64,000 nucleotides of DNA, taken from the sequence record OR352939.1. One strand, given 5' to 3'. Source of the stretch: Escherichia phage AV109. The position numbers and the translations under genes are program-made. Below the pieces are notes generated by a model. The model worked only from the letters and a program-made list of their open reading frames with translations. It was not told the DNA's origin and did no database searches. Below are positions 7,186 to 26,706 of this stretch, in pieces (positions within the stretch are counted from its first letter, which is position 1; each line of letters opens with the position of its first letter).

Positions 7186-7226
7186 GTTGTGGTCCTCATT
7201 GGTAAGTAGGAGTATTGTACACTATT

Positions 7227-12734: not shown

Positions 12735-12809
12735 GTAATTTTCCTCATTATCATTAAACTGGAGGATTTCTCCTCCATAATCGTATCACAATAAACGTAA
12801 AGCTTTGAC

Positions 12810-13496
12810 TTAGAAGTCGTGAGTAGAATCGGCTTCCATCGCAATAACATAACTTACTTGAGAGCTTTCAAACTTGGCTGCAACTTTATCACCAGCTCCC
12901 CACAACATTACTTTATAGTTACCTGGCTGGATTTTCATATTAGCCATATTGATTACGAAGTTAAAGTTGTTAGAACCATCATAATCGGTAAGAGTCAAAG
13001 AATACTTAGGACGAGTTAGTCCTGAATCTTCAACTTTATTATAGCCATTGATAACAATTTTACCATCTTTATTTGTAATAGCAATTGTATCAATCTGAAG
13101 ACCACGTGAAACTCGAAGCAATTGTTGAAGGTCTTCAGCTTTAATTTCAGTAATCACAGAAGCTACTGGGAATTGAATTGGCTTATTAGGAAAAACAATT
13201 GTGCTCTTGTCAGCGGCAGGCCAATAAACTGTGGAACGTGTATCTGCAATTTTAATATTGCCATCAGTGTGCATTGAAATTTCAGCATCATCAGACACTA
13301 GACTCAAAATGCTTAAGAAGCTATTCAAATCATAAAGTGCTACGTCAAAATCAATTTCATCAGAGATATTTGCTTCCGCATAAGTGGTGCCATTAACTGC
13401 ACGAGTCATAATAAATTTACCTTGACTCAGCAGAATGCCAGAGTTAATAGAAGCGAAGTTTTTCAGAATATTTACGGTTTCACGGCTAAGTTTCAT
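12810..13496 (-). CDS. 45: sliding clamp gp45
   Basis: 228 aa; MKLSRETVNILKNFASINSGILL... matches T4 gp45. Confidence 0.95.
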   Translation of the reverse strand: MKLSRETVNILKNFASINSGILLSQGKFIMTRAVNGTTYAEANISDEIDFDVALYDLNSFLSILSLVSDDAEISMHTDGNIKIADTRSTVYWPAADKSTIVFPNKPIQFPVASVITEIKAEDLQQLLRVSRGLQIDTIAITNKDGKIVINGYNKVEDSGLTRPKYSLTLTDYDGSNNFNFVINMANMKIQPGNYKVMLWGAGDKVAAKFESSQVSYVIAMEADSTHDF

Positions 13497-14392
13497 TTAG
13501 GTTTCCTATTAGCATAATAATTTGTCCAAGACCGGATAGCACCTTGGTATGATTCATCATTAAAACCATGCTGAATTGCATGTTTTCTAAATGTAATATA
13601 ACTTGGTTTTCCTAAAGCAATCCACAATTCCTTTAATTTTTGTTCATGAAATATCCATGTACCTCTAGCTTTAGATTTTCTGAATTTATCCTTAAATTCT
13701 TTGGTTGCATTTCTTTTCGAAGCTGCGATAGAGGCCTTTGCTCTATTTTCAGGTTTAGACCAATACAATGTTTTAGATATTTTTATTTTATCTTTAACAT
13801 TAGGAGAATTCATTATATCTTTAAATTTTAAAGCAAAATCTCTATCGCTAAACATTTTTTTAGAAAGAATAGAAACTTTCTCTCTTCGTTCTTTGGTCCA
13901 ATATGTTTTTTGAAATTCTCTAATTGCGTTTAAATGATTCTCCGACAATTTGCAATTTTTTCTAACACCGACGTAATCTTCGTTTATTTCGTTTTTAGAA
14001 AGTTTTACTATTTTGCCTGTTTTTAAATTTTTATACGGTGCATATCCTTTAGCTGATATTCTAGACTTCTCGTTAGCATAAGCCTTATTAAAATATTTTT
14101 CATTTGAAACGGCTTTAACATTGAGTTGGAATAGTCTTTCTATTCTTCTAGGGTCTAATGTGGTTTCGCCTAAAATTTTTACAGAATATTCGCCTTGGTC
14201 TATTAATCTGGTATATAAAGGAGAATACGAGGAATTAACACTACCGGTATATATTTTACCGGTAGAATCTTCAATAATATCCTTTCCATTAAAATGACAC
14301 GAAACTTTAGAACCTATATAATAACACGGGTATTCATTTTTAATCTCACGATTATAAAAGGTTATAAGATATATTAAATTCATAATTATCAA
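13493..14392 (-). CDS. GIY-YIG-like seg-type homing endonuclease inserted between rpbA and 45
   Basis: 299 aa; N-terminal LIYLITFY...CYYIGSK GIY-YIG-like motif; basic C-terminal region; paralogous to ORFs at 18245 and 25374. Confidence 0.55.
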   Translation of the reverse strand: MIIMNLIYLITFYNREIKNEYPCYYIGSKVSCHFNGKDIIEDSTGKIYTGSVNSSYSPLYTRLIDQGEYSVKILGETTLDPRRIERLFQLNVKAVSNEKYFNKAYANEKSRISAKGYAPYKNLKTGKIVKLSKNEINEDYVGVRKNCKLSENHLNAIREFQKTYWTKERREKVSILSKKMFSDRDFALKFKDIMNSPNVKDKIKISKTLYWSKPENRAKASIAASKRNATKEFKDKFRKSKARGTWIFHEQKLKELWIALGKPSYITFRKHAIQHGFNDESYQGAIRSWTNYYANRKPK

Positions 14393-14805
14393 GCAGCAAC
14401 CATCTGCTTTTTAATAGTTTCAGGCAGTGATTCAATATATTCTGGAATTTTAGAAGCAACAATTTCGCCAGCTGCAATTAGTTGTTCGTCGGCATCAACA
14501 CAGTAGGAATCTTCCAGACGCTCAGAACCGTCTTTATCAAGAACGATTTTTGCGCCAGCTTCAATAGAATCGTTATAGTGCTTACGCATCAGATGAATCC
14601 ACATATCAGATACATCGTTATCAATAAAACCATAAATCATAAAACGAGTTTCTTGTGGCAAAGATTGGAGTTTTTTAGCACTTGCGTCATCACAATGCAG
14701 GACCCATGCTTTACGAACACGATTATGGTTATGTGGGTTAGCGTCAGTACGGATAGAAGTAACTTTCAGATCAGCAGCAGTGAAACCTTTAGCAGTAGTA
14801 AACAT
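14389..14805 (-). CDS. rpbA: RNA polymerase-binding protein RpbA-like
   Basis: 138 aa; location between 46 and 45 as in T4; assignment mainly positional. Confidence 0.5.
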   Translation of the reverse strand: MFTTAKGFTAADLKVTSIRTDANPHNHNRVRKAWVLHCDDASAKKLQSLPQETRFMIYGFIDNDVSDMWIHLMRKHYNDSIEAGAKIVLDKDGSERLEDSYCVDADEQLIAAGEIVASKIPEYIESLPETIKKQMVAA

Positions 14806-14817
14806 ATTATTTCTCTC

Positions 14818-15018
14818 TTATTCGTAGAAGTCGGTAACTGTCCATGCAGAATTGCGATTAGACATTATTTTATTATACTCGTCTTTAAAAGCAGATTTGA
14901 GCATTTGTTCAGTAACAATATGTTCTTCACCTGAAAACGTATTGGTCAGAACATATTTTTTAATTTCAGGGACAACAAGAAGATGTTGTCCGGTTGAATA
15001 CTCCATGTTGTTCTCCAT
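14818..15018 (-). CDS. hypothetical protein (66 aa)
   Basis: ORF between gene 46 and rpbA. Confidence 0.4.
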   Translation of the reverse strand: MENNMEYSTGQHLLVVPEIKKYVLTNTFSGEEHIVTEQMLKSAFKDEYNKIMSNRNSAWTVTDFYE

Positions 15019-15060
15019 TTAATTTGATGTGGTCATTATAACCACATCGTGTTAAAGCGT

Positions 15061-16749
15061 TTATGAAACAGTCATTACCGTAAATCGTCCAACTTTGCTC
15101 ATTTGAAGATGTTGTCCATAAGCTTGTGGGTCATGGTCTCTGTGACTAATTATAAACACGTTTGCATCGGTTAGAGAGTTAAGAATTGTTGAAATAGCTT
15201 TAATACCTTCAGAATCAGTCGCGGAATCCATGACTTCGTCCATAATTAATGTATTGATTCTAACACCAGAGACCTTTTCAGCAATATCTCGCCATGTAAA
15301 CAACAACGCGATATCGATACGTGCTTTTTCACCTTGACTAAATGAAGCATAACTGAACTCTTCACGACCACGTGATTTTATAGATTCATTGAATTCTTCG
15401 TCAATAGAAAACACGTAATCAGCTTCCATGATTTTAAGATAATGGTTAATCTGCTTGTTGAACAGAGGCACATATTTTTTAATGATAGCACCTTTAATAC
15501 CAGAATCTTTTAACATATCTGTGATAATACCACGATGGTATTTTTCAAGAACGATATCCGATTTTGTTTTAATGATTTTATCAAGTTCTTTTTGAAGCAA
15601 AGCTATCTCATCGGCATGGTCGATAAATTCCGCTGAGGCTTGTTCTATTGCAGCTTTAACTTTCTTAGCTTTATCAATAGTGGCAATCATTGCTTGTTTC
15701 TTGGTACGAATATCAGATGCAAGGTCCTGTTTAGTCTTAACATTAGCTCTATATTCGTCCACTAGGACACTCAGATTATCTCTGTGGCAGGTAAGTTGCT
15801 CGAATGAGTGATTACATTCATGAAGCTTATCGGTAATCTTAGAGACAATAGGATCACCCTGGTGCAACTGTGATGCGCAAGTAGGACATGTACCGCCATC
15901 ATGATACATCTTAATAACTTTGTTGTATGAGTCAATTTTAGATTTAATCAAGAATGCTTCTTGTCCTATCTTGTTGAATGCCTCAGTAGGGTCTTCATCA
16001 AGAACGATATTAAGTAGTCGCTCATTAGCTTCTTCGATTTCTGCTTTTAATGAACGAGCTTCTTTAGCTAGGTCGTCATACATATTCTGTAGACGCGCTA
16101 CATTATCACCAGATAATTTCTTTTGACGTTCGATATTCTCGTTATAAATCTTAATTTGTTGGATAACACCATCTTTCTTGGCATCGAGAACTTGTCCCTG
16201 GGAATTAAGTTCTCGAACTTGAGACTTATTGATTTTATCCATTTCAGCGAGTGTGCCGACTTCTAAAAGGTCTTCGACAAGTTTTCTACGAGCAGGGGTG
16301 CTAAGAGCCATGAAAGGGGTATACCCTGCCGTCCCAAGCACAACGATCTGTTTAAAAGACGCGTATGACATTCCGATGCTACGTTCAAATTCTTCTTGGA
16401 AGTCACGACTGCTGGCAGATTCATCAAGACGAACACCGTCAACGGAGATTTCGAAAATATTGGGCTTTTGGCCACGTTTAATGAAGTATTTTTTATCATC
16501 GAATTCCATCCAAAGCTCAACTAAGAGCTCTTTCTTGTTCGTGCTATTAATGATTTGTCCTTTCTTAACATCACGAAATGGTTTACCGAAAAGTCCGAAA
16601 GTAATGGCTTCTAACATCGTAGATTTACCACCGCCATTTTTACCAGTGATTAATGTCTTTTGAACTTTATCTAATTGGATATCAATAGGATTCCCACCTA
16701 CCGACATGATGTTTTGATAACGAACACGATTTAATTTAAATGATTTCAT
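15061..16749 (-). CDS. 46: recombination nuclease subunit gp46 (Rad50/SbcC-like ATPase)
   Basis: 562 aa; Walker A GKNGGGKST, coiled-coil middle, CPTC zinc hook, Walker B LIMDEV; matches T4 gp46. Confidence 0.95.
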   Translation of the reverse strand: MKSFKLNRVRYQNIMSVGGNPIDIQLDKVQKTLITGKNGGGKSTMLEAITFGLFGKPFRDVKKGQIINSTNKKELLVELWMEFDDKKYFIKRGQKPNIFEISVDGVRLDESASSRDFQEEFERSIGMSYASFKQIVVLGTAGYTPFMALSTPARRKLVEDLLEVGTLAEMDKINKSQVRELNSQGQVLDAKKDGVIQQIKIYNENIERQKKLSGDNVARLQNMYDDLAKEARSLKAEIEEANERLLNIVLDEDPTEAFNKIGQEAFLIKSKIDSYNKVIKMYHDGGTCPTCASQLHQGDPIVSKITDKLHECNHSFEQLTCHRDNLSVLVDEYRANVKTKQDLASDIRTKKQAMIATIDKAKKVKAAIEQASAEFIDHADEIALLQKELDKIIKTKSDIVLEKYHRGIITDMLKDSGIKGAIIKKYVPLFNKQINHYLKIMEADYVFSIDEEFNESIKSRGREEFSYASFSQGEKARIDIALLFTWRDIAEKVSGVRINTLIMDEVMDSATDSEGIKAISTILNSLTDANVFIISHRDHDPQAYGQHLQMSKVGRFTVMTVS

Positions 16750-17000
16750 ATGTATTCTCTTCGAATGAAGTCCTCTACATATTTTAACATGTCATCCCTA
16801 TCAGCAAAATATTCATCTAGTTCTGCATACATAACAACACCTGGTGCATACTCACAGGTAACATACATTGTTCCAAAGAAACGAGGAGTTGATTCCTCGT
16901 AATTCTCAGTCCATTCAACGATACCAATATAACCGTCACCAATACTAAATTCATGACGATGGATTTCATAATCAGTCTTCGTCATTATACGCATCCTCAA
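16746..17000 (-). CDS. hypothetical protein (84 aa)
   Basis: ORF, 4-nt overlap with gene 46 start. Confidence 0.5.
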   Translation of the reverse strand: MRMRIMTKTDYEIHRHEFSIGDGYIGIVEWTENYEESTPRFFGTMYVTCEYAPGVVMYAELDEYFADRDDMLKYVEDFIRREYI

Positions 17001-17229
17001 TACACGCTTCAGCCATTTTAAGAATAGAGCCAGGAGTATCGTTGTCCATTATATTAAAGCTAAATTCAATAGCCCAGTCGGTGCAGACATGAACTGCTTT
17101 AACTTCATTGCCTTCAACGCGTAATGGCTCAATCCAATACTTGATAGTGTTCTCGAATCCATCGTCATCTTTAACGTCCATTTCAACTTCAAGCCTGAGT
17201 CCAGCATTGTTAAATTCATCTAAAGTCAT
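16972..17229 (-). CDS. hypothetical acidic protein (85 aa)
   Basis: ORF between 47 and 46. Confidence 0.45.
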   Translation of the reverse strand: MTLDEFNNAGLRLEVEMDVKDDDGFENTIKYWIEPLRVEGNEVKAVHVCTDWAIEFSFNIMDNDTPGSILKMAEACIEDAYNDED

Positions 17230-18248
17230 TGTGTTGCCTCAATATAAAGTTCGTTGGAATATTTGACCAGCGCTTCTCTGTCTTCATCTGAGATATCTGG
17301 AATCGCGTCAATATATTCTTTAATGATATCTTGAAGTGATTTAATCTCGATTTCCTGGTCGTCATCAGATTCAACACTGTTATCAACTTTAGAAACCATA
17401 CGAAGAGAGTGAACTACTTTTTCAAGTTCAGATTCAAACTTAGTCAACTCTGAATCAATTTCTGATACTATAACACGTACGGCTAGATTAGTATAATCAG
17501 AATAATTGATTTTGCCTTTAAATGGATAAGTGATTCGTCGATGCCATGTTGTTTCATTAGGAATAAATTCCATACGTTCAACATCAGTGTCAAATACCCA
17601 GAATCCGCGAGGGTCGTTCTCATCACCTGCAGTAAGGGTCCATGGTGTCCCAATATATTTGACGTTAGCAGCTTCAGAGATTGTGTGGAAGTGGCCAGAC
17701 CAGACTTGTTTATAGGTCTTTAAGAAATCAGGTTCAAGCCCATGAGACTTCATTCCTTTATAGAAATAGAAGCCATTTAATTCCCAGTGCCCAACACAAT
17801 ACGCTGCAGAAGAAGTCTTGATGTGCTCTAAGATTTCACCTGTATTTTCTTCACACATCCATGGAATCAAATCAATCAAGCACCCATCAAAATCTACTGT
17901 AGTTGGCTTATCATAAATTATTACGTTTTTACGATGGCTCAATAATTCTTGAACAGTGTTAGGATATAAGGTTGTTTTATAAAAGAGATCATGATTCCCA
18001 AGTATTGTATGGACTGTTATACCAGCGGCTTCCACCAAATCAAACATTTCACGCGTGAATTCCATACAACGTTGTGTGGTGTGGGCTCTGACATCAAATG
18101 TATCACCATATTGAATCCATGTTGTTATTCCATTTGCGACGGAATAGTCGATCATTTGTCTGAAACCGTCACGTTGTATAGCTTGAATCCAATCGTCGTC
18201 TTTTTTGACGCCTAGATGCAAATCGCCTATATTAAGTATTTTCATCAC
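17226..18248 (-). CDS. 47: recombination nuclease subunit gp47 (Mre11/SbcD-like phosphoesterase)
   Basis: 340 aa; GDLHLG, GNHD, GHFH metallophosphatase motifs; T4 gene order. Confidence 0.92.
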   Translation of the reverse strand: MMKILNIGDLHLGVKKDDDWIQAIQRDGFRQMIDYSVANGITTWIQYGDTFDVRAHTTQRCMEFTREMFDLVEAAGITVHTILGNHDLFYKTTLYPNTVQELLSHRKNVIIYDKPTTVDFDGCLIDLIPWMCEENTGEILEHIKTSSAAYCVGHWELNGFYFYKGMKSHGLEPDFLKTYKQVWSGHFHTISEAANVKYIGTPWTLTAGDENDPRGFWVFDTDVERMEFIPNETTWHRRITYPFKGKINYSDYTNLAVRVIVSEIDSELTKFESELEKVVHSLRMVSKVDNSVESDDDQEIEIKSLQDIIKEYIDAIPDISDEDREALVKYSNELYIEATQ

Positions 18249-19048
18249 ATACCTTTAAATTTGGAGTAAATTATATTGTGGTACGATATATCAGGAAACC
18301 CTTTATCGACCGCAATTTTTCTAAACTTATTAGGACTTATTTTACCACACTCCATCCATAATGCAAACAACTCGTCAAAATGCTCATATGCTGGACCTCG
18401 ACGAGCTTTTGACACAGCAGCACTTATGCGAGCCTTTTTCTCAGAATCAAGGTTTTTAAGAGAATTACTTATTTTATTTTTTTGCTCTTCTGAATTGAAG
18501 GTGCCTTTTTCCCAGCCTAAAGGTTGGCTTCCTTCATGGAACATTTTTCTTGAAGTTCCATTGGTATACCATATTTTACCTTTATTGTGCCCTGATGCTT
18601 TATATTTTGGTGAGCGTCCTTTTATAAATCCTTCAGGTATAGTAGGAGCAAATGTTTGTTCAAGGGTTTCTGGGTTATACGAATGTATGTTATTTTTGGC
18701 GTTATGAGACCCATATAATGGGTGATTTTTACCAGAAACATCACGCCCAAAGAAACCAGTTGGTGATGCCAAAGACATATTCATATACAAAGGATTTTTA
18801 TGAGCTTGAACTCTAATTTGATAGTCCTTTTCCACCTTTAAAGCTTCTTCTCGTGTTGGATGTTCGCTCAAAATACAAGAATCAAACAACGTAGGATTTT
18901 CTAAAAGTTCTTTGTTATAAATTTTACGATAGGCTTTAGATAGAATAGTACCATGATACCCGTTTAAATGTTTTTCTAAGCTAGTCGAACCTATGTAAAA
19001 AGGTGGTAGCTTATCTCCAGAATAAATTGTCAAATAGACTATAAACAT
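18245..19048 (-). CDS. GIY-YIG-like seg-type homing endonuclease at the position where T4 carries alpha-glucosyltransferase
   Basis: Probable start MFIVYLTIYSGDKLPPFYIGSTS at 19048 with AAGGAG SD 7 nt upstream; track ORF extends to 19117. Confidence 0.55.
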   Translation of the reverse strand: MFIVYLTIYSGDKLPPFYIGSTSLEKHLNGYHGTILSKAYRKIYNKELLENPTLFDSCILSEHPTREEALKVEKDYQIRVQAHKNPLYMNMSLASPTGFFGRDVSGKNHPLYGSHNAKNNIHSYNPETLEQTFAPTIPEGFIKGRSPKYKASGHNKGKIWYTNGTSRKMFHEGSQPLGWEKGTFNSEEQKNKISNSLKNLDSEKKARISAAVSKARRGPAYEHFDELFALWMECGKISPNKFRKIAVDKGFPDISYHNIIYSKFKGM

Positions 19049-19072
19049 ATATTTCTCCTTTGATTTAAGGAG

Positions 19073-19102
19073 ATTATAACACGCCTTTAATGAAGCGTAA
19101 AC
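19073..19102 (-). promoter_or_regulatory. T4-type early promoter (GTTTAC -35, TATAAT -10) driving the seg-like gene
   Basis: Minus strand GTTTAC, about 17-18 nt spacer, TTATAAT, then SD AAGGAG. Confidence 0.45.
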
Positions 19103-19127
19103 AAAAAAAGGAAGCACTAGGCTTCCT
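19103..19127 (-). terminator. rho-independent terminator (minus strand)
   Basis: aggaagc-actag-gcttcct hairpin followed on the minus strand by a run of seven T. Confidence 0.5.
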
Positions 19128-19193
19128 TTTGATATCGCCTAAGGCTTATAGGTCCTTAGAAATCTGGATGTTCATCTTCAACAAAGCTAGTAT

Positions 19194-19409
19194 TCATCGC
19201 TGCCACCATTTTTTAAGTTGATGTGAATCTACCCATACCTTCGCTACAGGCTCAATATTAAAAATACCATCGGACGTACGTCCAATCATTTTGTATTCGG
19301 TTTCAGATTGCTTGATACAAATATCACCATAAGAGCGAAGTCTAAAAGCGGCTCCTACTAGAAGCCGTTTAAACTTTGTTTGAACTAGCGCCATTAATGA
19401 TGTCCTCAA
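19194..19409 (-). CDS. hypothetical protein (71 aa)
   Basis: ORF; overlaps next ORF, start uncertain. Confidence 0.35.
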   Translation of the reverse strand: MRTSLMALVQTKFKRLLVGAAFRLRSYGDICIKQSETEYKMIGRTSDGIFNIEPVAKVWVDSHQLKKWWQR

Positions 19410-19692
19410 TAGCCTGACGAGTAGTAACCCACTGGATTTTAATTAACTTGTCATTATATGGTTGTCTTAGAATATCCCGAGATTTCTTAATAGCATATTC
19501 GTAAGCTTCGAAGTTGTTTTGAATTGCTGCTTCTTGAGCATGAGCATAAAGACGGTTTAGTTCAAAACGATTCTTTTTAAGAATCTTTTCGGATTTTTTA
19601 CGTGCTTCAGCTTCATTTTTCTTTTGGATTTCTTGTAGCATTTTAGCTACTGCATCTTCTGCTTCTTTATTTTCAATAATCTCGGTAGTCAT
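19369..19692 (-). CDS. hypothetical protein (107 aa), Lys/Glu-rich helical
   Basis: ORF. Confidence 0.45.
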   Translation of the reverse strand: MTTEIIENKEAEDAVAKMLQEIQKKNEAEARKKSEKILKKNRFELNRLYAHAQEAAIQNNFEAYEYAIKKSRDILRQPYNDKLIKIQWVTTRQAIEDIINGASSNKV

Positions 19693-19693
19693 A

Positions 19694-19909
19694 TTATCTC
19701 ATTAAATTAAAATAAAAACGTCCGTCCTCTTCAATACAGAACTCATACTCAACCGGAGTCCCATTTATCGAAAATAACACGTCATGTGGGTTCAAAGGGT
19801 CGATGTCAAAATTAATTTTAAATTCACGACCCAACAGTTTTACCAAATAAGGGATTGCTTCGTCAAAAGGTTCTTCTAAGTAGTTAGAGATGTCAATTGT
19901 CATCCTCAT
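19694..19909 (-). CDS. hypothetical protein (about 71 aa)
   Basis: Track ORF 19694..19987 overlaps gene 55; internal Met [14 protein letters not shown] is the likely start. Confidence 0.4.
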
Positions 19910-20468
19910 ATAAAAAATCCAAACTAGGCGAATCGCTAACAACTTCCTTCTTTTCAGCCCCAGGAGCTTTATAAGCGGATTCTTCATAATGCGTCATTTT
20001 ATCGTAGATGTCTTGAATAAACGTTTCATCTACCAACGCTACCATATCATCGTCATGACTGTCGTAGACATTATGAACGAAGTAACTATATTTCTTTGCA
20101 ACTTCCTTACGTTCTTTTTTGATACGTTGGACAAAAGCATTAAAACAAGCTCGAGTTATGTATGCATGTGGGTTATTGTACTTAGTTTCGTCGAAATTAT
20201 GAAGTCCCTTAATAGAGGCTTCAATCCCATCTGCAATCATCTCCTGCTTCCAAGACTGGGTATATCCTGAAAAGTTGAAACGTTTGGACAGGCCTTCGGC
20301 GATAAGCATAATTGCTAAACCGATGGTATCATTCTGACGAATAATTTTGTTTGGGTCTTTATTATTTAAGAGCTCCTTTTTCCACTCGATTATAGCGGCG
20401 AGAAGCTCTTTATTATTCACATAGTTATTTTTAGGTTTTTGTTCAGTCATAAGTACCTCTTGGCTCAA
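19893..20468 (-). CDS. 55: late sigma factor gp55
   Basis: 191 aa; [70 protein letters not shown] matches T4 gp55. Confidence 0.96.
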
Positions 20469-20605
20469 TTCATAGGTCTATTATATCATAATATTTAGAG
20501 ACCTATCTTAAAGCACGAGATACTATCAAAGATACGTAACTTTCATAAAGTTGTCGACTTAAAATTCACCAAACTTTTCTTCGGTTATAGCGATTCAAGA
20601 TAGTT

Positions 20606-20833
20606 TCATTCTATTTCCTTTGCTGCAAATAAGGCAGCATCCAACGAATCAAATTGGTCAACAAAATCAATATTTAACGCATCGTCAACCGTAGCATATA
20701 ACCACCATTGTTTGAATTCATATTCAAGAATAAATCCAGGCCCTTCAATCTGAGGAAGACCTAGGCTATTTGTACCAACTTCGTAACCAGCTAGACGGAG
20801 GTCATTAATCAAAGTTTCTGTTAATACGCTCAT
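20606..20833 (-). CDS. hypothetical protein (75 aa)
   Basis: ORF. Confidence 0.45.
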   Translation of the reverse strand: MSVLTETLINDLRLAGYEVGTNSLGLPQIEGPGFILEYEFKQWWLYATVDDALNIDFVDQFDSLDAALFAAKEIE

Positions 20834-21162
20834 TTTACCGCCTTAACAATTTTCAAGTCAACGAATTTTTTCTTACGTTGATTTTTCATACGACGGATAG
20901 TCTTTTCAGAGATTTCATGTTTCTGATAAGCTTTAGATTCAACACCAAATGCAGCAACGTCAAATTCAGAAAGAATATATTGTACTAGAATTTCACGAAT
21001 AGAATTACGTCCAATTTTCTGGTCGTGTTTTTGCATGATTTCATAAAGACGGAATTCCCACGCGTCAAGAACTTGAGGAGTAACAATATTGCCGGATTCC
21101 AGAAGAGCAACAACTTTATCGAAAGCGAAAGAATTAACTACGTTTTTGATTTTAGTAGACAT
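20830..21162 (-). CDS. hypothetical protein (about 110 aa)
   Basis: Internal Met MSTKIKNVV at 21162 has strong SD GAGGAAAA; track ORF extends to 21201. Confidence 0.5.
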   Translation of the reverse strand: MSTKIKNVVNSFAFDKVVALLESGNIVTPQVLDAWEFRLYEIMQKHDQKIGRNSIREILVQYILSEFDVAAFGVESKAYQKHEISEKTIRRMKNQRKKKFVDLKIVKAVK

Positions 21163-21199
21163 ATTATTTTCCTCGGTTATTTTATTATCCAATGAGAGC

Positions 21200-21229
21200 A
21201 TTATACTCTGCTCTCAAGAGTTTGTAAAT
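21200..21229 (-). promoter_or_regulatory. early-promoter-like element (ATTTAC -35, TATAAT -10) overlapping a 7-bp inverted repeat
   Basis: Minus strand GATTTACA, 18 nt, TATAAT; gagagca...tgctctc inverted repeat spans the -10. Confidence 0.35.
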
Positions 21230-21231
21230 CG

Positions 21232-21432
21232 TTATCCGAACTTTTTAGCGCCTTTCCAGCCTTCGTACATAACTGCACAAGTCAGTAGTACAGCGTGCTG
21301 GCATTCTTTGTATTTGTAAATCCAGAACCAGCGTAAGAAGTCTTCATCCTCAACGCCGTTGAGTTTCATATTGGCAAAGAATTCGGCACGTTCTTCACGA
21401 AGCTTTTGCGATAACATAGATTCAGGATTCAT
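21232..21432 (-). CDS. hypothetical protein (66 aa)
   Basis: ORF. Confidence 0.4.
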   Translation of the reverse strand: MNPESMLSQKLREERAEFFANMKLNGVEDEDFLRWFWIYKYKECQHAVLLTCAVMYEGWKGAKKFG

Positions 21433-21656
21433 TTTGCGTTCCAGGCCCCATTTTCATCGATGAACTTAATCCAGTCATTTACAGACCATTTAGTTGTATC
21501 ACCCTTTGGATTAACATTTAAAGTATATAATCCCTGCTTAAAAAGCATTCGTTTGATATTCATAATTTCCTCAACTATAACGATAACATTCGTTAGCTTT
21601 ACGTTTGGCTTCAGTATGAGAAGTATTATAATCATACTCTTCTTTACTGTAAACAT
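21429..21656 (-). CDS. hypothetical protein; start uncertain
   Basis: Track ORF overlaps the next ORF by 86 nt; internal Met at about 21563 would remove the overlap. Confidence 0.35.
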   Translation of the reverse strand: MFTVKKSMIIILLILKPNVKLTNVIVIVEEIMNIKRMLFKQGLYTLNVNPKGDTTKWSVNDWIKFIDENGAWNAK

Positions 21657-21891
21657 CTTTTTTCAACTTACGAACTTCTTTGCGGAGTTGTCGATTCATT
21701 TCGTTCTTGACTTCAGAATCAACGCCTTTCATACGTTTCCATTTATCTGAGCGGAAGATGTTTTCAACCATGTCTTTGTGGCTAACACCGTCAGGAGCTT
21801 TACGCTTACCAAAATAGTCGTAATCGCGAACTTTCAAATCTTTACGACGATATGTTTTACCCATAAGTACCTCAGAGGTTGATTGATACAA
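21571..21891 (-). CDS. hypothetical basic protein (106 aa)
   Basis: ORF, Lys/Arg-rich. Confidence 0.45.
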   Translation of the reverse strand: MYQSTSEVLMGKTYRRKDLKVRDYDYFGKRKAPDGVSHKDMVENIFRSDKWKRMKGVDSEVKNEMNRQLRKEVRKLKKDVYSKEEYDYNTSHTEAKRKANECYRYS

Positions 21892-22120
21892 TGCGTTTGA
21901 TAAAATTCACTTCACTTACTGAAAGGTCTTTAAGACCGATTGATTCTAAACGCTGAATAAAAGTCAACATTGGGATATAGTCCCAATGTGTTTTAGACGT
22001 TTGATAAGTACGGACGCCATTAGCAATTTCAACGTTCAAATCGGAAATGGTAATGAATATCAGACGTTCGTTATTTACATTAAGAGATAGAACAACTTTC
22101 TTTGAATCTAAACTAATCAC
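21872..22120 (-). CDS. hypothetical protein (82 aa)
   Basis: ORF. Confidence 0.4.
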   Translation of the reverse strand: MISLDSKKVVLSLNVNNERLIFITISDLNVEIANGVRTYQTSKTHWDYIPMLTFIQRLESIGLKDLSVSEVNFIKRIVSINL

Positions 22121-22419
22121 GGCTTAATTTCCTTCGCAATTGAACAGAAGATACCACGGTCACAAAGCATTTCACCAATTTCTGGATATTTGATTGAACG
22201 GTACCAAACATCCAGGCTTGAAACTCTGGTTATCTGTACTGCATTACCGTTGACAGAATAGTACTGGTCAACCTTAATTTCTTTATCTTCAATTGTCATT
22301 TTATTTTCCTCTATAGTAGATGGTTTAATCTTAACACATCTATCGAGGATGTAAACTGTTTTATGAAAATATTTTTGATTTGAGAGGGGCACAAGGAGAT
22401 AGTGAAGTGAAGATTCCAA
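22117..22419 (-). CDS. hypothetical protein (100 aa)
   Basis: ORF, 4-nt overlap with downstream ORF. Confidence 0.45.
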   Translation of the reverse strand: MESSLHYLLVPLSNQKYFHKTVYILDRCVKIKPSTIEENKMTIEDKEIKVDQYYSVNGNAVQITRVSSLDVWYRSIKYPEIGEMLCDRGIFCSIAKEIKP

Positions 22420-22464
22420 TGGATTATATTAGAAATGAGATAAAGAAGACCAGGCGGCACCTGG

Positions 22465-22773
22465 TCAATCTTCTATGATATCAGAGTCGTATCCTAATGA
22501 AATCAAGGACTTTTTAAACTCTGCAATATTCTTTTGTTTCTTATCATTTAAAAATATGACAGGATAACGAATATTAAGTGAAGTGAATCCTGCACGTTTA
22601 GCAAGAGATACGATTAAAGGACGGTCATATTCAATCTTACCATTATTAGTGAGGACTTTATAAAATGTATAAGGAGCATTGAGCTCCTTTAAAAGTTTTG
22701 TAACAGTATAACATCCTGGACAACGTCCAACTTCTTCAGGGATGCCATAAATTTCAATCTTGTTGTGTTCCAC
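22465..22773 (-). CDS. nrdH: glutaredoxin-like protein NrdH
   Basis: 102 aa; CPGC redox motif near N-terminus; adjacent to nrdG/nrdD. Confidence 0.8.
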   Translation of the reverse strand: MEHNKIEIYGIPEEVGRCPGCYTVTKLLKELNAPYTFYKVLTNNGKIEYDRPLIVSLAKRAGFTSLNIRYPVIFLNDKKQKNIAEFKKSLISLGYDSDIIED

Positions 22774-22775
22774 AA

Positions 22776-22988
22776 TTATTCCTTGCCAAGAACAGAATTC
22801 AGTTTATTAGTAATTTTGTCCAAACGTTCATTGAATTCGCTGGAGGATAAACCCTTTTCCGGAGAAATTAAACTAATCACGAAAAATACACCAGTAAAAG
22901 GAATAAGAAAAATAGCTCCAACTGCCATAAACAAAAAGAACGTTACAGTTGTAAGAAAATCAGCTAAACCTTTACGAAATTTGTACAT
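22776..22988 (-). CDS. small membrane protein (70 aa)
   Basis: Hydrophobic segments FFLFMAVGAIFLIPFTGVFFVISLI. Confidence 0.45.
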   Translation of the reverse strand: MYKFRKGLADFLTTVTFFLFMAVGAIFLIPFTGVFFVISLISPEKGLSSSEFNERLDKITNKLNSVLGKE

Positions 22989-23098
22989 ATTTACCCTTAA
23001 TTAACTAAGAATTGATAATCATTAAACTATATTGCGAATAAAATTCTGGACCAAAACGAAAAATCATATCATTTATAGTATCCATAATGTAATTCAAT

Positions 23099-23569
23099 TT
23101 AATCATGTTTCCACACCCCATCGGTATTTGACCAAAGTCGCTGATTATCTGATCCTCGCCACAGTTTTTTGGTCGGAAGATTTTTCTCATACTTCCCATC
23201 AATAATAACATCAACATATTTAAGCATTTCTAGTTGTTTAATATCTTCAAACTTATATCCTGTCCACAACCAAATGCTTTTATTGGGATAAAGATTTTTT
23301 ACTGTTTGAACAATGCAATGAATAACATCTCGGTTATCAGGATAGAGAGGGTCACCTCCGGTTATAGTTAATCCTTCTATATAATCATTATTCAAACATT
23401 CAATTAATTGTTCTAGTGTTTCACCAGTGAATGGAATACCATTTCTAGCATTCCATGTTGATTTATTATAACACCCTTCGCATTTATGCAAACAACCTGT
23501 AACGAAAAGAACGACCCTGCATCCAGGGCCATTCACAAAATCGCAAGGATAAAATCTATCATAATTCAT
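23099..23569 (-). CDS. nrdG: anaerobic ribonucleotide reductase activating protein NrdG (radical SAM)
   Basis: 156 aa; CLHKCEGC cysteine motif; 4-nt overlap with nrdD. Confidence 0.9.
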   Translation of the reverse strand: MNYDRFYPCDFVNGPGCRVVLFVTGCLHKCEGCYNKSTWNARNGIPFTGETLEQLIECLNNDYIEGLTITGGDPLYPDNRDVIHCIVQTVKNLYPNKSIWLWTGYKFEDIKQLEMLKYVDVIIDGKYEKNLPTKKLWRGSDNQRLWSNTDGVWKHD

Positions 23570-25383
23570 TGGTGTTTAACCCTATGCATTATTTCTTTAT
23601 TTTTACCGAGATTAAATCCGCGTTCGTTCGGATTTCCCAAATAACCGCATGTTCTTCTTATGGTGTTCATCTTTTTAGGATCAGTTTCTCCACAGATAGA
23701 ACAAACAAATCCGTTTTCAGTAGGAGTCATTTCATGGGTACTTCCACATGTAAAACATTTATCTACTGGCATATTAACACCAAAATAATCTAAATGCTGT
23801 GCAGCATAATCCCACACGGCCTCAAGACCTTTTAAGTTATTTTTCATATCAGGAAGTTCAACATAAGAAATGTGACCACCTGTCGCAATGAAATGATACG
23901 GCGCTTCACGAGAAATCTTTTCAAACGGAGTAATATTTTCTTCTACTGAAACGTGGAAACTGTTAGTGTACCAGCCTTTATCGGTAACATCTTTTACACT
24001 TCCATATTTTTCTGTATCAAGTTTACAGAAGCGATAACAAAGGTTTTCAGCAGGAGTAGAATACAAACTAAAAGCAAAACCAGTTCTTTCAGTCCACTGT
24101 TTAAGATGAGCATTCATTTTAGTTAAAATTTCTTGTCCAATATCACGACCGACAAGAATATTCAATTCATGAATACCGATGTATCCTAAAGACACTGAAC
24201 TTCTACCGTTTTTAAATAGCTCAATTATATCGTCATCAGGTTTAAGACGAACCCCGAATGCACCTTCTTGGTAAAGAATAGGAGCAACAGTCGCTTTAAC
24301 TCCTTTTAAGGAACTAATTCTACACATCAAAGCTTCAAAACACAGGTCCATTCGTTCATTGAATAATTCAACAAATTTCTGTTCATTGAACTGTGTTCCA
24401 ATATAAGAATCTAATGCGATACGAGGAAGATTCAGTGTTACAACGCCGAGATTATTACGACCGTCAAGAATTTCATTTCCAGTTGAATCTTTCCATACGC
24501 TCAAGAAACTACGGCAACCCATCGGAGAAACTGGAACTGAAGAACCGGTAATAGCTTTATTATTCTTAACTGAAATAATGTCAGGATACATTCTTTTGCT
24601 TGCACATTCTAACGCAAGTTGTTTAATATCATAGTTTGGATCATCTTTATAAAGATTAACACCTTCTTCAAAAAACATAACAAGCTTAGGGAAAATAGGA
24701 GTTATTCCATCACGTCCAAGGCCTTTAATGCGGTTTTTAAGAATTGCCTTCTGAATCATTCGTTCAGTCCAGTCAGTTCCCGTACCAAATGTAATTGTCA
24801 CAAAAGGCGTTTGTCCGTTTGAACTAAAGAGAGTGTTTACTTCATATTCATAAGCTTGGAATGCATCGTATACGTCTTTTTCTGTTTTAGATTGAGCATA
24901 ATTCAGAATGTCTGGTATTTGCCATTTTTCTGCATCTTCAACATGTTTAGCGTATGTGCGTTTAACATAAGGAGAAAGAACTTTATCGACATTCGCAAAT
25001 GTAGTTCCGCCATACTGGTGTGAAGCAACTTGTGCAGTAATTTGTGCCATAATTGCAGTAGCAACGCCAATAGATTTAGGCGTTTCAATTTGAGCATTGC
25101 CTAATTTAAATCCATTCTCAAGCATTCCTTTTAAATCTACTAAACAGCAATTAGTAAAAGGCAATGATATACTATAATCTAAATCGTGAAAATGAATTAA
25201 TCCGACATTATGAGCATTTACAATATGGCTCGGAAGAATACTACAAGCGATATGTTTAGAAACAATACCGGCCATTAAATCTCTTTTTGTTGGAAAGACA
25301 CGAGAATCTTTGTTGGCATTTTCGGTATTTAATTCTTTATCTTTATTTGAAATAAAATTTAAAACATCTTTCTCTAAAGACAT
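23566..25383 (-). CDS. nrdD: anaerobic ribonucleoside-triphosphate reductase NrdD
   Basis: 605 aa; C-terminal glycyl-radical motif RTCGYLG and zinc-ribbon CxxC pairs. Confidence 0.97.
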   Translation of the reverse strand: MSLEKDVLNFISNKDKELNTENANKDSRVFPTKRDLMAGIVSKHIACSILPSHIVNAHNVGLIHFHDLDYSISLPFTNCCLVDLKGMLENGFKLGNAQIETPKSIGVATAIMAQITAQVASHQYGGTTFANVDKVLSPYVKRTYAKHVEDAEKWQIPDILNYAQSKTEKDVYDAFQAYEYEVNTLFSSNGQTPFVTITFGTGTDWTERMIQKAILKNRIKGLGRDGITPIFPKLVMFFEEGVNLYKDDPNYDIKQLALECASKRMYPDIISVKNNKAITGSSVPVSPMGCRSFLSVWKDSTGNEILDGRNNLGVVTLNLPRIALDSYIGTQFNEQKFVELFNERMDLCFEALMCRISSLKGVKATVAPILYQEGAFGVRLKPDDDIIELFKNGRSSVSLGYIGIHELNILVGRDIGQEILTKMNAHLKQWTERTGFAFSLYSTPAENLCYRFCKLDTEKYGSVKDVTDKGWYTNSFHVSVEENITPFEKISREAPYHFIATGGHISYVELPDMKNNLKGLEAVWDYAAQHLDYFGVNMPVDKCFTCGSTHEMTPTENGFVCSICGETDPKKMNTIRRTCGYLGNPNERGFNLGKNKEIMHRVKHQ

Positions 25384-26195
25384 AATTCTAATTTATCCTT
25401 TTGAAATTCTTCGTCTAAATATGGGTTCCAACCCATTTTAAACCTTTTGATGAAATTATCAATTCTAAATTTCGGTAAATTTAACTCCGCAAAAATAGAT
25501 GATTTACTTTTAAAATCTGGACCTAAATAATCATATAAAATTTCTGCGTATTTTAACCATAATATATAAGTACCAGATTTAATTGCGTTCGGAGTTTTCC
25601 AAGGTTTTACACCATACATCGGATTTCCACTTCCTTTATGCCTGATAGAAGATGAAATTCCAATTTTAATTTTAGCTTCCTTTGTATGCGAAAATCCACG
25701 ATGCGGATTTTCTTTCCAGTATTTTTTAGCAGCTTCTGATATTTTCTTTCTGGCTAAATTAGTATGATGCTTTCCATAAAATCCATGATTTTTGCCTTTA
25801 TTACGATTTCTTTTAATCATGGTTATTGATTGCTTTTCTCTAGTTTCTTTAGAAGGAGAAATACCATATGTCGTAAATTTGCCATCAGCATATGCTAAAT
25901 TAAAATACTCTTTATTCCATACATCTTTTTCTATATTCTTTTGAAATTCAGCTTCAATGCTAGTTATTTGTTCATCTCCGACTAATTGAAAATATAATAT
26001 TTCAACTTTCGGCGTTTCTTTCAATAAGGCTTTTTGAAATTCGGAAGATGACGAAGACGAATAATAAAATTTACCATTTTTATCAATAATATTCGTTCCA
26101 TCAAAAGTGCAATTGGTTTTACTTCCAATGTAATAATATGGTGGGGTTTTAGCATTAATTCTATTAATAAATGATAGTTTATATACTACATTCAT
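25374..26195 (-). CDS. GIY-YIG-like seg-type homing endonuclease inserted between gene 49 and nrdD
   Basis: 273 aa; N-terminal VVYKLSF...YYYIGSK; ATGA overlap with gene 49 stop and 10-nt overlap with nrdD start. Confidence 0.55.
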   Translation of the reverse strand: MNVVYKLSFINRINAKTPPYYYIGSKTNCTFDGTNIIDKNGKFYYSSSSSSEFQKALLKETPKVEILYFQLVGDEQITSIEAEFQKNIEKDVWNKEYFNLAYADGKFTTYGISPSKETREKQSITMIKRNRNKGKNHGFYGKHHTNLARKKISEAAKKYWKENPHRGFSHTKEAKIKIGISSSIRHKGSGNPMYGVKPWKTPNAIKSGTYILWLKYAEILYDYLGPDFKSKSSIFAELNLPKFRIDNFIKRFKMGWNPYLDEEFQKDKLELCL

Positions 26196-26665
26196 TTTAA
26201 ACTCTTTCTAAGCTGCTTTTTGAATGAAGCTATTAATTGTGTTTTAGTATCAGATTCAGTATATTCAAATCCTCTTTGAAGCATCTCAGCCATCATTTCC
26301 TCTTTACCTAGTCTTGAGAACTCTTTAGTTTTGTCTGGAACAAAATTAGGATGGATATTATTATCAGAATAATCTTGTTTCAAATAAGCAAGAAGAGCTT
26401 CAAGCCATTCTAAGTAGTCAACGTTTTGACCTTTCAAACCGGAACGGTTGAACTTATGCTTCATTTGACCTTCTGCTGCGTTGCACAGATTACAGAGTAA
26501 TCCACGAACTCTACCGGCTTTTGGCCCGTTTAATTCATGGTCGTGGTCAAGATGGTTACCTTGAACATCAGGGTCTAATTCACGGTGGCAAATAGGACAC
26601 TTACCATTCTGTGCATCATAAAATTTTTGTTTTTCTTCTTTATATTTTGCGCCTGATAATAACAT
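26192..26665 (-). CDS. 49: endonuclease VII (Holliday junction resolvase)
   Basis: 157 aa; KFYDAQNGKCPICHRELDPDVQGNHLDHDHELNGPKAGRVRGLLCNLCNAAEGQMKHKFNRSGLKG matches T4 gp49. Confidence 0.96.
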   Translation of the reverse strand: MLLSGAKYKEEKQKFYDAQNGKCPICHRELDPDVQGNHLDHDHELNGPKAGRVRGLLCNLCNAAEGQMKHKFNRSGLKGQNVDYLEWLEALLAYLKQDYSDNNIHPNFVPDKTKEFSRLGKEEMMAEMLQRGFEYTESDTKTQLIASFKKQLRKSLK

Positions 26666-26706
26666 GATAAACCCTTACCTTTTAAATAGATAAGGGTATT
26701 TATAAT

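Follow-up and report, generated by a model that had tools for sequence, protein, structure and literature searches.

Three probable free-standing Seg-type homing endonuclease genes, each directly upstream of an essential gene, in Escherichia phage AV109

What are the three open reading frames carried on the minus strand of Escherichia phage AV109 at 13493-14392, 18245-19048 and 25374-26195 (here ORF1, ORF2 and ORF3), and what does their wedging between conserved genes say about how they spread? The window, by which we mean the whole 64,000-nucleotide stretch of record OR352939.1 that was analysed, belongs to a Mosigvirus, an RB69-type relative of T4, and is ~99.8% identical to Escherichia phage AV114. 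An earlier note read the three as paralogous seg-like GIY-YIG endonuclease genes at gene boundaries, one of them replacing alpha-gt. The reading frames stand as described on that strand, and we consider it very probable that all three are free-standing (intron-less) Seg-type homing endonuclease genes (HEGs). Only the start of ORF1 needs revision: ATG 14383 is more likely than TTG 14392, since the TTG falls inside the last codons of rpbA and the ATG (MNLIYLITF) is the start that homologues share and that the AV114 annotation uses. Such elements are well known in T-even phages, and the finding is thus real, yet ordinary; the AV109 trio are new, uncharacterised GIY-YIG homing endonuclease genes of an already known kind.

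Table 1. Features discussed in the text, in window coordinates
Feature	Position	Strand	Remark
Recoded gene 45 5' end, codons 1-9	13471..13496	-	linked to ORF1
ORF1, 296 aa	13493..14383	-	between rpbA and gene 45
MotA-type middle-promoter-like motif	13595..13619	-	in ORF1 3' part, ~100 nt upstream of gene 45 ATG
Second MotA-type motif inside ORF1	13812-13835	-	pattern match
Foreign 5' third of gene 47, codons 1-~120	17886..18245	-	linked to ORF2
ORF2, 267 aa	18245..19048	-	GIY-YIG domain; directly upstream of gene 47
7-bp hairpin, ORF2 Shine-Dalgarno AAGGAGA paired with UCUCCUU	19054..19073	-	predicted fold
Promoter-like site TTTACG-17 nt-(TG)TATAAT	19073..19101	-	motif match
Intrinsic-terminator-like hairpin, then T run	19106..19130	-	-12.3 kcal/mol, z -4.8
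Divergent a-gt.3 homologue	19194..19409	-	upstream edge of ORF2 cassette
Recoded nrdD 5' end, ~20 codons	25325..25383	-	linked to ORF3
ORF3, 273 aa	25374..26195	-	SegG-like N- and C-terminal parts and NUMOD3 motif
Resident MotA-type promoter-like motif	26258..26283	-	gene 49 3' end, 63 nt upstream of ORF3

As read from their alignments, all three proteins carry an N-terminal Seg-type GIY-YIG nuclease domain, and the comparison with the T4 seg and I-Tev families that the earlier note called for bears out its family assignment. T4 SegG is the best T4 match of every N-terminal domain, with BLASTP identities over 110-138 residues of 36% for ORF1 (E 5e-14), 31% for ORF2 (E 1.6e-6) and 40% for ORF3 (E 5e-26); tblastn across all phage records gave E 6e-8 (ORF1) and 2e-17 (ORF3). 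The second signature motif is YIGS in all three, whereas the first, given before as GIY, is [LIV][IV]Y rather than the literal triplet. When the ORFs are aligned with I-TevI, I-TevII and SegA-G, residues Y6, Y17, G19 and N90 (I-TevI numbering) are invariant and the Glu of the ERE region is conserved; Arg27 of I-TevI has no clear counterpart there, either in the ORFs or in the T4 Seg proteins. The Tyr, Tyr-x-Gly, Glu and Asn positions are also invariant across homologue sets of 37 and 98. AlphaFold models of ORF1 and ORF2 (mean pLDDT 86 and 89) have the I-TevI catalytic domain (structures 1LN0 and 1MK0) as the best solved-structure match of their predicted folds. In Foldseek searches of the PDB this domain took the top three places for ORF2 (probability 0.97-0.99, TM 0.55-0.61), and the full-length ORF1 model returned no significant match. 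Against canonical GIY-YIG domains, hhalign gave 93.7% probability for the ORF2 family and 72.6% (E 3e-5) for the ORF3/SegG family. Within the 64 kb, an HMM of the N-terminal domain matched these three ORFs and no others, and their same-locus homologues in other phages, invariant residues and model confidence together place them beyond chance.

At the same time, the domain search that the earlier note had named as a possible refutation gave no Pfam GIY-YIG match for ORF1 or ORF3 and a sub-threshold one for ORF2 (17.5 bits, cut-off 22.6). That outcome is misleading as a test, because the same search equally misses T4 SegF and SegG, both experimentally active. The NCBIfam search of the three ORFs gave nothing above cut-off, and the sole match in PDB sequence and profile searches was the I-TevI DNA-binding domain (E ~0.02).

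Outside the nuclease domain each protein is basic (pI 9.7-10.2), as the earlier note said of the C-termini, and modular. In ORF1 a SegG-like GIY-YIG domain (residues 1-~110) is followed by a basic helical middle and a helix-turn-helix-like tail; in ORF2 the middle is beta-rich with a weak NUMOD3 match. The C-terminal tails of both match the C-termini of SegA, SegF and MobD. ORF3 has a NUMOD3 element above the Pfam threshold (29.6 bits, cut-off 20.4), and its C-terminus resembles that of SegG by eye (PWKT..., ...GW.P..D.E[FY]). MobD has an HNH catalytic domain, and the shared tail is thus a module that domain shuffling has distributed among nuclease families and that marks no one family. This bears on the RefSeq and PHROG 10820 labels under which homologues of ORF2 are called HNH endonucleases, a reading with nothing but those database labels in its favour, and one that we find barely credible: Pfam returned no HNH family at E up to 0.1, the sole nuclease-domain match being GIY-YIG, the fold matches I-TevI, none of 98 homologues departs from YIGS, Glu and Asn, the hhalign result points the same way, and similarity to T4 Mob proteins is confined to the C-terminal DNA-binding tail (MobD 171-243).

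The term paralogous holds for the three only in the sense of a shared ancient domain. ORF1 and ORF3 are 29% identical over the N-terminal ~180 residues (E 3e-13) and ORF1 and ORF2 26% identical over their full length (E 9e-9); direct pairwise BLASTP of ORF2 and ORF3 was not significant, the two being connected through intermediates and T4 SegG. With identities this low, and with closer relatives of each found at its own locus elsewhere, the sequences argue that the three are independent acquisitions, not duplicates arisen in the AV109 genome.

That the genes are inserts, as the earlier note supposed, is borne out by synteny: at each of the three loci the site is empty in the sister phage APCEc01. 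Overlapping start and stop codons, claimed before for every boundary, occur at four of the six junctions. The ORF1 stop overlaps the gene 45 ATG (ATGA), the ORF2 stop shares 1 nt with the gene 47 ATG (TGATG), and ORF3 sits exactly at the ATGA overlap of the gene 49 stop and nrdD start, its ATG overlapping the former (ATGA) and its end the latter by 10 nt. The exceptions are the 5' side of ORF1, where 5 nt separate the rpbA stop from the ATG 14383 start, and that of ORF2, preceded by a 145-nt intergenic region. GC content is low in ORF1 and ORF3 (28-29% in ORF3).

Each insertion is linked to an altered 5' end of the essential gene directly downstream. Thirteen of the first 30 nt of gene 45 differ from APCEc01, the Ser4 codon having changed from TCT to AGC, and identity is 98% thereafter; 9 records contain the exact patch, and 9 contain ORF1 at ≥95%. 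The patch is not strictly diagnostic, since the Tequatrovirus Lutter, HEG-free at gene 45, has a 5' variant closely resembling the one in a HEG-carrying Tequatrovirus. The first 60 nt of nrdD are 55% identical to APCEc01 and 100% identical to Lutter, which carries ORF3, whereas the HEG-free alleles of T4 and APCEc01 agree at 74 of 75 nt; this patch and ORF3 at ≥90% are each found in 49 records. ORF3 itself is 98.4% identical at the nucleotide level between the window and Lutter, against 80.6% for gene 49, 76.4% for gene 45 and 75.5% for gene 46, and such near-identity across two genera implies very recent spread. We presume the recoded ends of gene 45 and nrdD to be protected versions of the ORF1 and ORF3 targets.

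In gene 47 the altered tract is longer and is read as a co-conversion tract. It is 60-73% identical to APCEc01 in nucleotides, against 97-100% for the remainder of the gene, with a blastn break at 17918/17919. Its protein is 100% identical only in AV114, AV115, AV116 and AV118, the same four phages to which ORF2 is confined, falling to 87.5% in LF82-4, ~76% in phages of Erwinia and Serratia and ~63% in the ordinary members of Mosigvirus and Tequatrovirus. The entire cassette runs from 17919 to 19362, alignment with APCEc01 restarting at 19363, and the a-gt.3 homologue at its edge is 51% identical to the APCEc01 protein, which is itself 71% identical to that of T4. The domain assignment, these sharp boundaries, the presence/absence polymorphism, the flank linkage and the cross-genus near-identity of the ORF3 cassette are direct observations; the divergent flanks are evidence of linkage, not of cleavage. 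One could also suppose that the ORFs are ordinary lineage-specific accessory genes and their flanks recombination mosaics unrelated to any nuclease. T-even genomes are indeed mosaic at many places without a nearby endonuclease gene (PMC2993671), and several further small indels separate the window from APCEc01. We nonetheless regard this as very improbable, given the nuclease fold and motifs and the sharply bounded link to a recoded essential gene at all three insertions.

One claim did not survive, namely that ORF2 replaces alpha-gt. RB69-type phages lack glucosyltransferase genes (Petrov et al. 2010, PMC2993671), and at this position the HEG-free APCEc01 has only a-gt.2 and a-gt.3 homologues, the former missing from the window. 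Moreover, Tequatrovirus phages such as teqhad and Lutter carry an ORF2-type gene (~207 aa, labelled 'HNH endonuclease') between 47.1 and 47, at the same point immediately before the gene 47 ATG, and with an intact alpha-gt adjoining. Its product is ~65% identical to ORF2 over residues 2-182; it differs in lacking the ~85-residue C-terminal tail, and the gene 47 5' end linked to it is not the window variant.

The general pathway can be outlined on the model of T4 SegA-C, E, F and G, whose targets and co-conversion are summarised in PMC2988022; the present-day activity, cut sites and expression timing of each enzyme are inferred. Consider a mixed infection in which a carrier meets a HEG-free relative. 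The enzyme would cut the relative's allele at or close to the 5' end of whichever essential gene directly follows the HEG, the predicted targets being gene 45 (sliding clamp) for ORF1, gene 47 (Mre11-like nuclease) for ORF2 and nrdD for ORF3. Recombination would then repair the break with the HEG-carrying genome as template, so that the recipient gains the HEG together with some of its flanks, while the carrier would be spared by the recoding of the stretch adjoining its insertion. Phage-phage competition might instead be the main selected role, the cutting of co-infecting relatives lowering rival yield (marker exclusion) and the spread of the gene being a by-product. Each predicted target is an essential gene of replication, recombination or nucleotide metabolism, the exclusion of T2 markers is explained by Seg enzymes of T4 (PMC2988022), and HEG nucleases are counted among phage-phage exclusion factors (Petrov et al., PMC2993671). 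However, the molecular steps are those of homing, so that sequence data cannot separate the two, and a gene travelling tightly with its protected flank is what selfish spread predicts, phage benefit being unneeded; we hold the competition role to be possible but doubtful.

Homing thus understood has close precedents. The free-standing gene of T4 SegG lies between 32 and 59, and this GIY-YIG homing endonuclease cuts gene 32 of T2; each ORF likewise forms a cassette directly upstream of an essential gene, its likely target. The loci (45/rpbA, 47 and 49/nrdD) and predicted targets differ, as do the NUMOD3 insert of ORF3 and the other DNA-binding tail of ORF1 and ORF2, and activity of the ORFs is predicted only. 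In some T4 relatives the place of mobC, between nrdG and nrdD, is taken by the GIY-YIG gene SegH (Sandegren et al. 2005, as described in PMC2988022), by that description another Seg-like gene adjoining nrdD in T-even phages, on the other side from ORF3. I-TevI, of the td intron, shares the catalytic fold and residue positions and a weak NUMOD3-type similarity in its DNA-binding domain; the ORFs differ in not being intron-encoded, in lacking a zinc finger and an I-TevI-type DNA-binding domain, and in showing no evident Arg27 counterpart.

Expression of the three ORFs appears to rely on resident signals. The promoter and terminator that the earlier note assigned to ORF2 do exist as motifs, although their ownership is another matter: APCEc01, T4, teqhad and Lutter have equivalent terminators, and HEG-free relatives have a terminator and MotA-type promoter at the equivalent place ahead of gene 47 or 47.1. 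These signals are therefore most simply taken as those of the gene 47 transcription unit, riding on the cassette. The promoter was called early; a near MotA box, CGCTTCA, lies 12 nt from the -10 and overlaps it, and CGCTTCA-12 nt-TATAAT would fit a middle promoter about as well. ORF2 would be expressed downstream of this pair, with a hairpin over its ribosome-binding site, AAGGAG. The 46-nt fold is predicted at -11.9 kcal/mol (z -3.8, with none of 200 shuffles as stable), and in a transcript from the adjacent promoter (27 nt) the hairpin is absent (0 kcal/mol). We propose for ORF2 the ribosome-binding-site hairpin logic of I-TevI (PMC2988022), with the difference that the adjoining promoter is sigma-70- or MotA-like, not late. 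ORF3 may be expressed from the motif in the gene 49 3' end, also present in HEG-free T4 and APCEc01 and probably the nrdD middle promoter, now serving ORF3 too.

ORF1 would be expressed on the rpbA transcript, and gene 45 promoter-like motifs lie within its coding sequence. This raises the prospect that one or more of the ORFs are inactive relics, kept for signals that the downstream gene needs, whether translational coupling to 45, 47 and nrdD or those motifs. The stop/start overlaps and embedded motifs fit such retention, AV111 has a frameshifted ORF1, which demonstrates that decay does occur and may be in progress, and the T4 review names embedded promoters as a factor in HEG retention and counts mobA and I-TevIII among defective HEGs (PMC2988022). 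Against this, all three in the window are of full length and retain the conserved Tyr, Tyr-x-Gly, Glu and Asn, the ORF1 and ORF2 models are confidently folded and the ORF3 cassette has spread very recently, and we judge the relic explanation unlikely. Across the window the MotA-type pattern itself has 11 matches where 1.9 would be expected, a count reached in none of 100 shuffles.

We believe that ORF1, ORF2 and ORF3 of phage AV109 are best read, from sequence comparison, as three independent and uncharacterised Seg-type homing endonuclease genes (HEGs), each accompanied by recoding of the 5' end of its neighbour, gene 45, 47 or nrdD; their activity, cleavage sites and timing of expression are what we infer from this. 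All three are present where the earlier note had placed them, on a minus strand that reads 44, 45, ORF1, rpbA, 45.2, 46, 46.1, 46.2, 47, ORF2, an a-gt.3-like gene, a-gt.4, a-gt.5, 55, further genes, nrdH, nrdG, nrdD, ORF3, 49, and window 12800-26700 is 99.8% identical to Escherichia phage AV114. AV109 falls in Mosigvirus, the RB69-type genus of T4-like phages. The most likely start of ORF1 is the ATG at 14383, since this start is kept in homologues (MNL[IV]YLI..) and the TTG at 14392 falls within the end of rpbA. The overlapping stop and start codons that the note described at each gene stand at ORF1/45 (ATGA), ORF2/47 (TGATG), 49/ORF3 (ATGA) and ORF3/nrdD (10 nt). An HMM of the N-terminal domain finds ORF1, ORF2 and ORF3 and nothing else in the 64 kb. 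In pairwise comparison, ORF1 and ORF3 have an N-terminal region in common (29% identity, E 3e-13), and ORF1 aligns with ORF2 along the whole length, including a common C-terminal tail (26%, E 9e-9); the similarity of ORF2 and ORF3 is not significant pairwise, and these two are joined via intermediates. On these comparisons, and on the relatives of each gene in phage records, we reject the idea that the three are recent duplicates of one another.

Coordinates of the features discussed (window positions unless another phage is named)
Sequence	Feature	Coordinates	Strand	Remark
AV109	ORF1	13493-14383	-
AV109	ORF2	18245-19048	-
AV109	ORF3	25374-26195	-
AV109	Site 1 segment	13471-14385		In place of 65 nt in APCEc01
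AV109	Site 2 segment	17919-19362		In place of 788 nt in APCEc01
AV109	T4 a-gt.3 homologue	19194-19409	-	51% identical to APCEc01 protein
AV109	ORF2 hairpin pairing Shine-Dalgarno and start region	19054-19084	-	-11.9 kcal/mol, z -3.8
AV109	MotA-type pattern, examples	2040-2064, 5908-5933, 7214-7238, 15575-15599, 37648-37673, 49151-49175
AV109	nrdD 3' part	23549-24845		94.5% identical to T4
AV109	nrdD 5' part	24848-25324		81.8% identical to T4
AV109	Site lacking pin	26709-26718		About 430 nt fewer than APCEc01
AV109	Sites of extra APCEc01 segments	20527/20528, 21226, 22764-22787		184, 295 and 323 nt
AV111	ORF1 copy	1557-2452		Counterpart of window 13493-14392
teqhad	Region of 47.1 and ORF2-type gene	3874-4680		Labelled 'HNH endonuclease'
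Lutter	Region of 47.1 and ORF2-type gene	5995-6800		Labelled 'HNH endonuclease'
teqhad	Annotated HEG adjoining gene 46	36-752
Lutter	Annotated HEG adjoining gene 46	3700-4554

The assignment to the GIY-YIG seg-like family, made in the earlier note, is borne out by matches to SegG, by invariant residues, by profile-profile comparison and by the fold of ORF2. Each protein has significant similarity to a characterised Seg protein, T4 SegG (BLASTP: ORF1 36%, E 5e-14; ORF2 31%, E 1.6e-6; ORF3 40%, E 5e-26), and SegG-type matches against the whole phage collection have E-values of 6e-8 and 2e-17. In an alignment with I-TevI, I-TevII and SegA-G, four residues show no variation (Tyr6, Tyr17, Gly19 and Asn90) and the catalytic Glu hardly any; the numbering follows I-TevI, where this Glu is E75. 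Across 37 ORF1/ORF3-type proteins Y5, Y22, G24, S25, Y45, E82 and N99 are invariant, as are Y18, G20, Y31, E73 and N90 in 98 ORF2-type proteins. The alignment with I-TevI and the Seg proteins shows no Arg opposite I-TevI Arg27, either in ORF1-3 or in T4 SegA-G; a Lys following YIGS is frequent in ORF1, ORF3 and SegG. The GIY-YIG catalytic fold, a three-stranded sheet flanked by helices, is found, and the top three PDB matches of the AlphaFold model of ORF2 (pLDDT 88.9) are the I-TevI catalytic domain, at a probability of 0.97-0.99. Comparison with canonical GIY-YIG domains in hhalign gives 93.7% for the ORF2 family and 72.6% for the ORF3/SegG family; the five-sequence ORF1 family alone (Neff 1.6) gives no meaningful match.

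The note had named a domain search that places the proteins outside the GIY-YIG family as grounds for refutation, and the Pfam search did come out negative: ORF2 scores 17.5 bits against PF01541, whose cut-off is 22.6, and ORF1 and ORF3 do not match at all. In the same scan, however, T4 SegF and SegG also go unmatched and SegC, SegD and SegE fall below the cut-off, yet SegF and SegG are listed as active GIY-YIG enzymes in a review of T4 (PMC2988022). The model is thus insensitive to this subclass, and we set its result aside as a refutation; a test by Pfam alone would wrongly leave such proteins out. Other searches were similarly quiet. An NCBIfam scan of the three proteins returned nothing above threshold, its sole weak match being 'group I intron endonuclease' for ORF3; phmmer searches of each protein against PDB sequences returned nothing relevant; and a profile search of two family alignments against the PDB returned the I-TevI DNA-binding domain alone (E 0.02).

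As in Seg enzymes, the nuclease domain is fused to a separate DNA-binding region of NUMOD or helix-turn-helix modules. The non-catalytic parts are basic (pI 9.7-10.2), and structure models of ORF1 and ORF2 show separate helical C-terminal domains. NUMOD3 is found by Pfam in ORF3 (29.6 bits, above threshold), which has a SegG-like C-terminus, and below threshold in ORF2. The tail that ORF1 and ORF2 have in common matches the C-terminal ends of SegA and SegF and of MobD, an HNH protein; DNA-binding modules are known to be shuffled in this way from one family of nucleases to another. The full architecture of ORF1 is rare, with only three clusters at E 1e-30 or better among 1.84 billion representatives.

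A competing label for the ORF2 type comes from PHROG 10820 and RefSeq, which call its homologues 'HNH endonuclease', as do the records of the Tequatroviruses teqhad and Lutter, where the gene has the GIY-YIG fold and motifs. We consider this label unsupported. Pfam results up to E 0.1 contain no HNH (beta-beta-alpha-metal) family; T4 Mob queries find no HNH gene in the 64-kb window; and the sole BLASTP match with T4 MobB-E joins the tail of ORF2 to the C-terminus of MobD, while the fold of the N-terminal domain is GIY-YIG. An annotation fix follows for ORF1 and ORF2, which are 'hypothetical protein' in the AV114 record, and for the ORF2-type genes widely called 'HNH endonuclease'.

The insertions are clearest against APCEc01, a sister Mosigvirus that lacks all three genes. 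They are intergenic rather than intron-encoded, and are present or absent among close relatives, as expected of Seg-type genes; RB69 itself is recorded with no HEGs (PMC2993671). At the first site, identity to APCEc01 returns upstream right at the rpbA stop. On the other side, recoding of gene 45 covers codons 3-9: of the first 30 nt, 13 are different, the Ser4 codon is AGC in place of TCT, and four residues are conservatively replaced; beyond this, identity is 98%. The exact gene 45 patch occurs in nine phage records, and ORF1 at 95% or more likewise in nine. Among these carriers, AV111 has a single-base deletion that shifts the frame after about residue 200, with loss of the C-terminal DNA-binding part; either this copy is decaying or the deletion is an error of sequencing. 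Some Tequatroviruses have an ORF1 homologue of 60% identity at this site.

At the second site the first ~360 nt of gene 47 are 60-73% identical to APCEc01 and the remainder 97-100%. The N-terminal 120 residues of gp47 are closest to LF82-4 (87.5%), followed by Erwinia/Serratia T4-like phages (~76%) and ordinary Mosigvirus/Tequatrovirus phages (~63%). Gene 47 is thus a chimera whose junction abuts the endonuclease gene. Only AV114, AV115, AV116 and AV118 carry this 1.44-kb unit at 99% identity or more (the best match after them has ~71%), and ORF2 is found in four records. The earlier note had ORF2 replacing alpha-gt, and this does not hold. The T4 order is 47, 47.1, a-gt, mobB, a-gt.2-5, 55, but RB69-type phages lack glucosyltransferase genes (Petrov et al. 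2010, PMC2993671), and APCEc01 has only a-gt.2 and a-gt.3 homologues between 47 and a-gt.4. In teqhad and Lutter, moreover, the ORF2-type gene sits exactly between 47.1 and 47, with alpha-gt intact alongside. From the gene content of APCEc01 and this position, we conclude that the predicted cleavage target of ORF2 is the start of gene 47, unconnected to alpha-gt. The APCEc01 a-gt.2 homologue is missing from the window; the a-gt.3 homologue is unannotated in the AV114 record, as is gene 47.1, present upstream of the ORF2-type gene, in those of teqhad and Lutter.

Evidence for expression of the three genes is at motif level only. ORF2 is preceded by a hairpin that resembles a terminator (z -4.8), by a promoter-like site and by a strong Shine-Dalgarno, and the early promoter and upstream terminator that the note assigned to ORF2 are to this extent present. 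They are most simply taken as signals already resident at the gene 47 unit, however, because in T4, teqhad, Lutter and APCEc01, HEG-free relatives included, a terminator and a MotA-type promoter precede 47.1 or 47 in the equivalent position. In the window the promoter reads CGCTTCA-12 nt-TATAAT with a GTTTAC -35 overlapping it, a form that would suit either an early or a middle promoter. A second hairpin, pairing the Shine-Dalgarno and start region of ORF2, would be absent from a transcript begun at the adjacent promoter; it resembles the published control of I-TevI, segB and mobE, with the difference that the proximal promoter at ORF2 is not a late one. No T4 late promoter consensus (TATAAATA) lies within or just upstream of ORF1-3. 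The MotA-type pattern TGCTTYA-N11-13-TANNNT occurs 11 times in the 64-kb window (1.9 expected), 10 of them on the minus strand; two copies lie within ORF1, one ~100 nt upstream of gene 45. Another precedes ORF3, within the 3' end of gene 49, and since it is conserved in HEG-free T4 and APCEc01, ORF3 looks like a promoter-less cassette behind the nrdD promoter. A generic sigma-70 scan shows no enrichment over shuffles (53 found, 54 expected), so that these promoter statements rest on position and the MotA-type pattern.

The insertion point of ORF3 is precisely the ATGA where the gene 49 stop overlaps the nrdD start. Recoding in nrdD extends over the first ~20 codons, with 55% identity to APCEc01 across 60 nt. 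Over 75 nt of the nrdD 5' end, HEG-free T4 and APCEc01 agree at 74 positions, and so do the HEG-carrying window and Lutter. Window and Lutter are 98.4% identical in ORF3, against 80.6% in gene 49, 75.5% in gene 46 and 76.4% in gene 45. The recoded patch occurs in 49 records, as does ORF3. It would be tempting to take the 92% nrdG-nrdD identity of window and Lutter as a trace of ORF3 spread as well; we reject this because HEG-free APCEc01 is equally similar to Lutter there. Indeed, nrdG-nrdD is 91-99% identical between Lutter and APCEc01, and the block may reflect repeated endonuclease-driven conversion. Against T4, identity within nrdD breaks at the I-TevII intron insertion point, and neighbouring genes are 72-82% identical.

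The patterns of insertion and flank are those that intron-less homing with co-conversion produces (PMC2988022, PMC10448857). In a mixed infection of carrier and HEG-free phages, the empty allele would undergo a putative site-specific double-strand cleavage, the recoded stretch adjoining each insertion being linked to the gene, and preferential inheritance with co-conversion of the flanks is predicted; the ORF3 cassette is 98.4% identical across genera between flanks of 75-81%, and the foreign 360-nt tract of gene 47 abutting ORF2 is in keeping with putative co-conversion. The cuts are predicted to fall in codons 1-10 of gene 45, in the first ~360 bp of gene 47 and in the first ~60 bp of nrdD. 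On balance, we lean towards the view that the three cassettes record recent homing across genus boundaries, building chimeric essential genes; a 2010 review found no convincing evidence of such elements moving between phage clusters (PMC2993671). Under cross-genus homing, ORF3 and the recoded ~60 nt nrdD leader may be one unit, 98-100% identical between Tequatrovirus and Mosigvirus, and the ORF2 cassette may have imported the N-terminal third of the Mre11-like gp47, phosphoesterase motifs included, from a lineage that may lie nearer the Erwinia/Serratia T4-like phages. If this is true, phage pairs like AV114 and APCEc01 would serve as a natural system in which to measure intron-less homing, and the immunity of target sites, at three loci simultaneously.

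Such genes are ordinary for T-even phages, and the current understanding of these elements is unchanged. The significance is modest: three uncharacterised Seg-family members with three new predicted targets (45, 47 and the nrdD 5' end), and, at gene 45 and nrdD, a discrete division into carrier and empty haplotypes, from which directly testable cleavage-site predictions follow. Most instructive are the chimeric gene 47 and the ORF3 cassette with its identity across genera, which illustrate the transfer of essential-gene pieces between T-even genera.

Further annotated HEGs adjoin gene 46 in Lutter and teqhad, and across T-even genera such insertions have a hot spot in the segment from gene 45 to gene 49. 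Next to it, the window lacks pin (inhibitor of host Lon protease), a gene that comes after gene 49 in T4, Lutter and APCEc01. The extra segments of APCEc01 carry small ORFs and are further presence/absence differences among small early genes.
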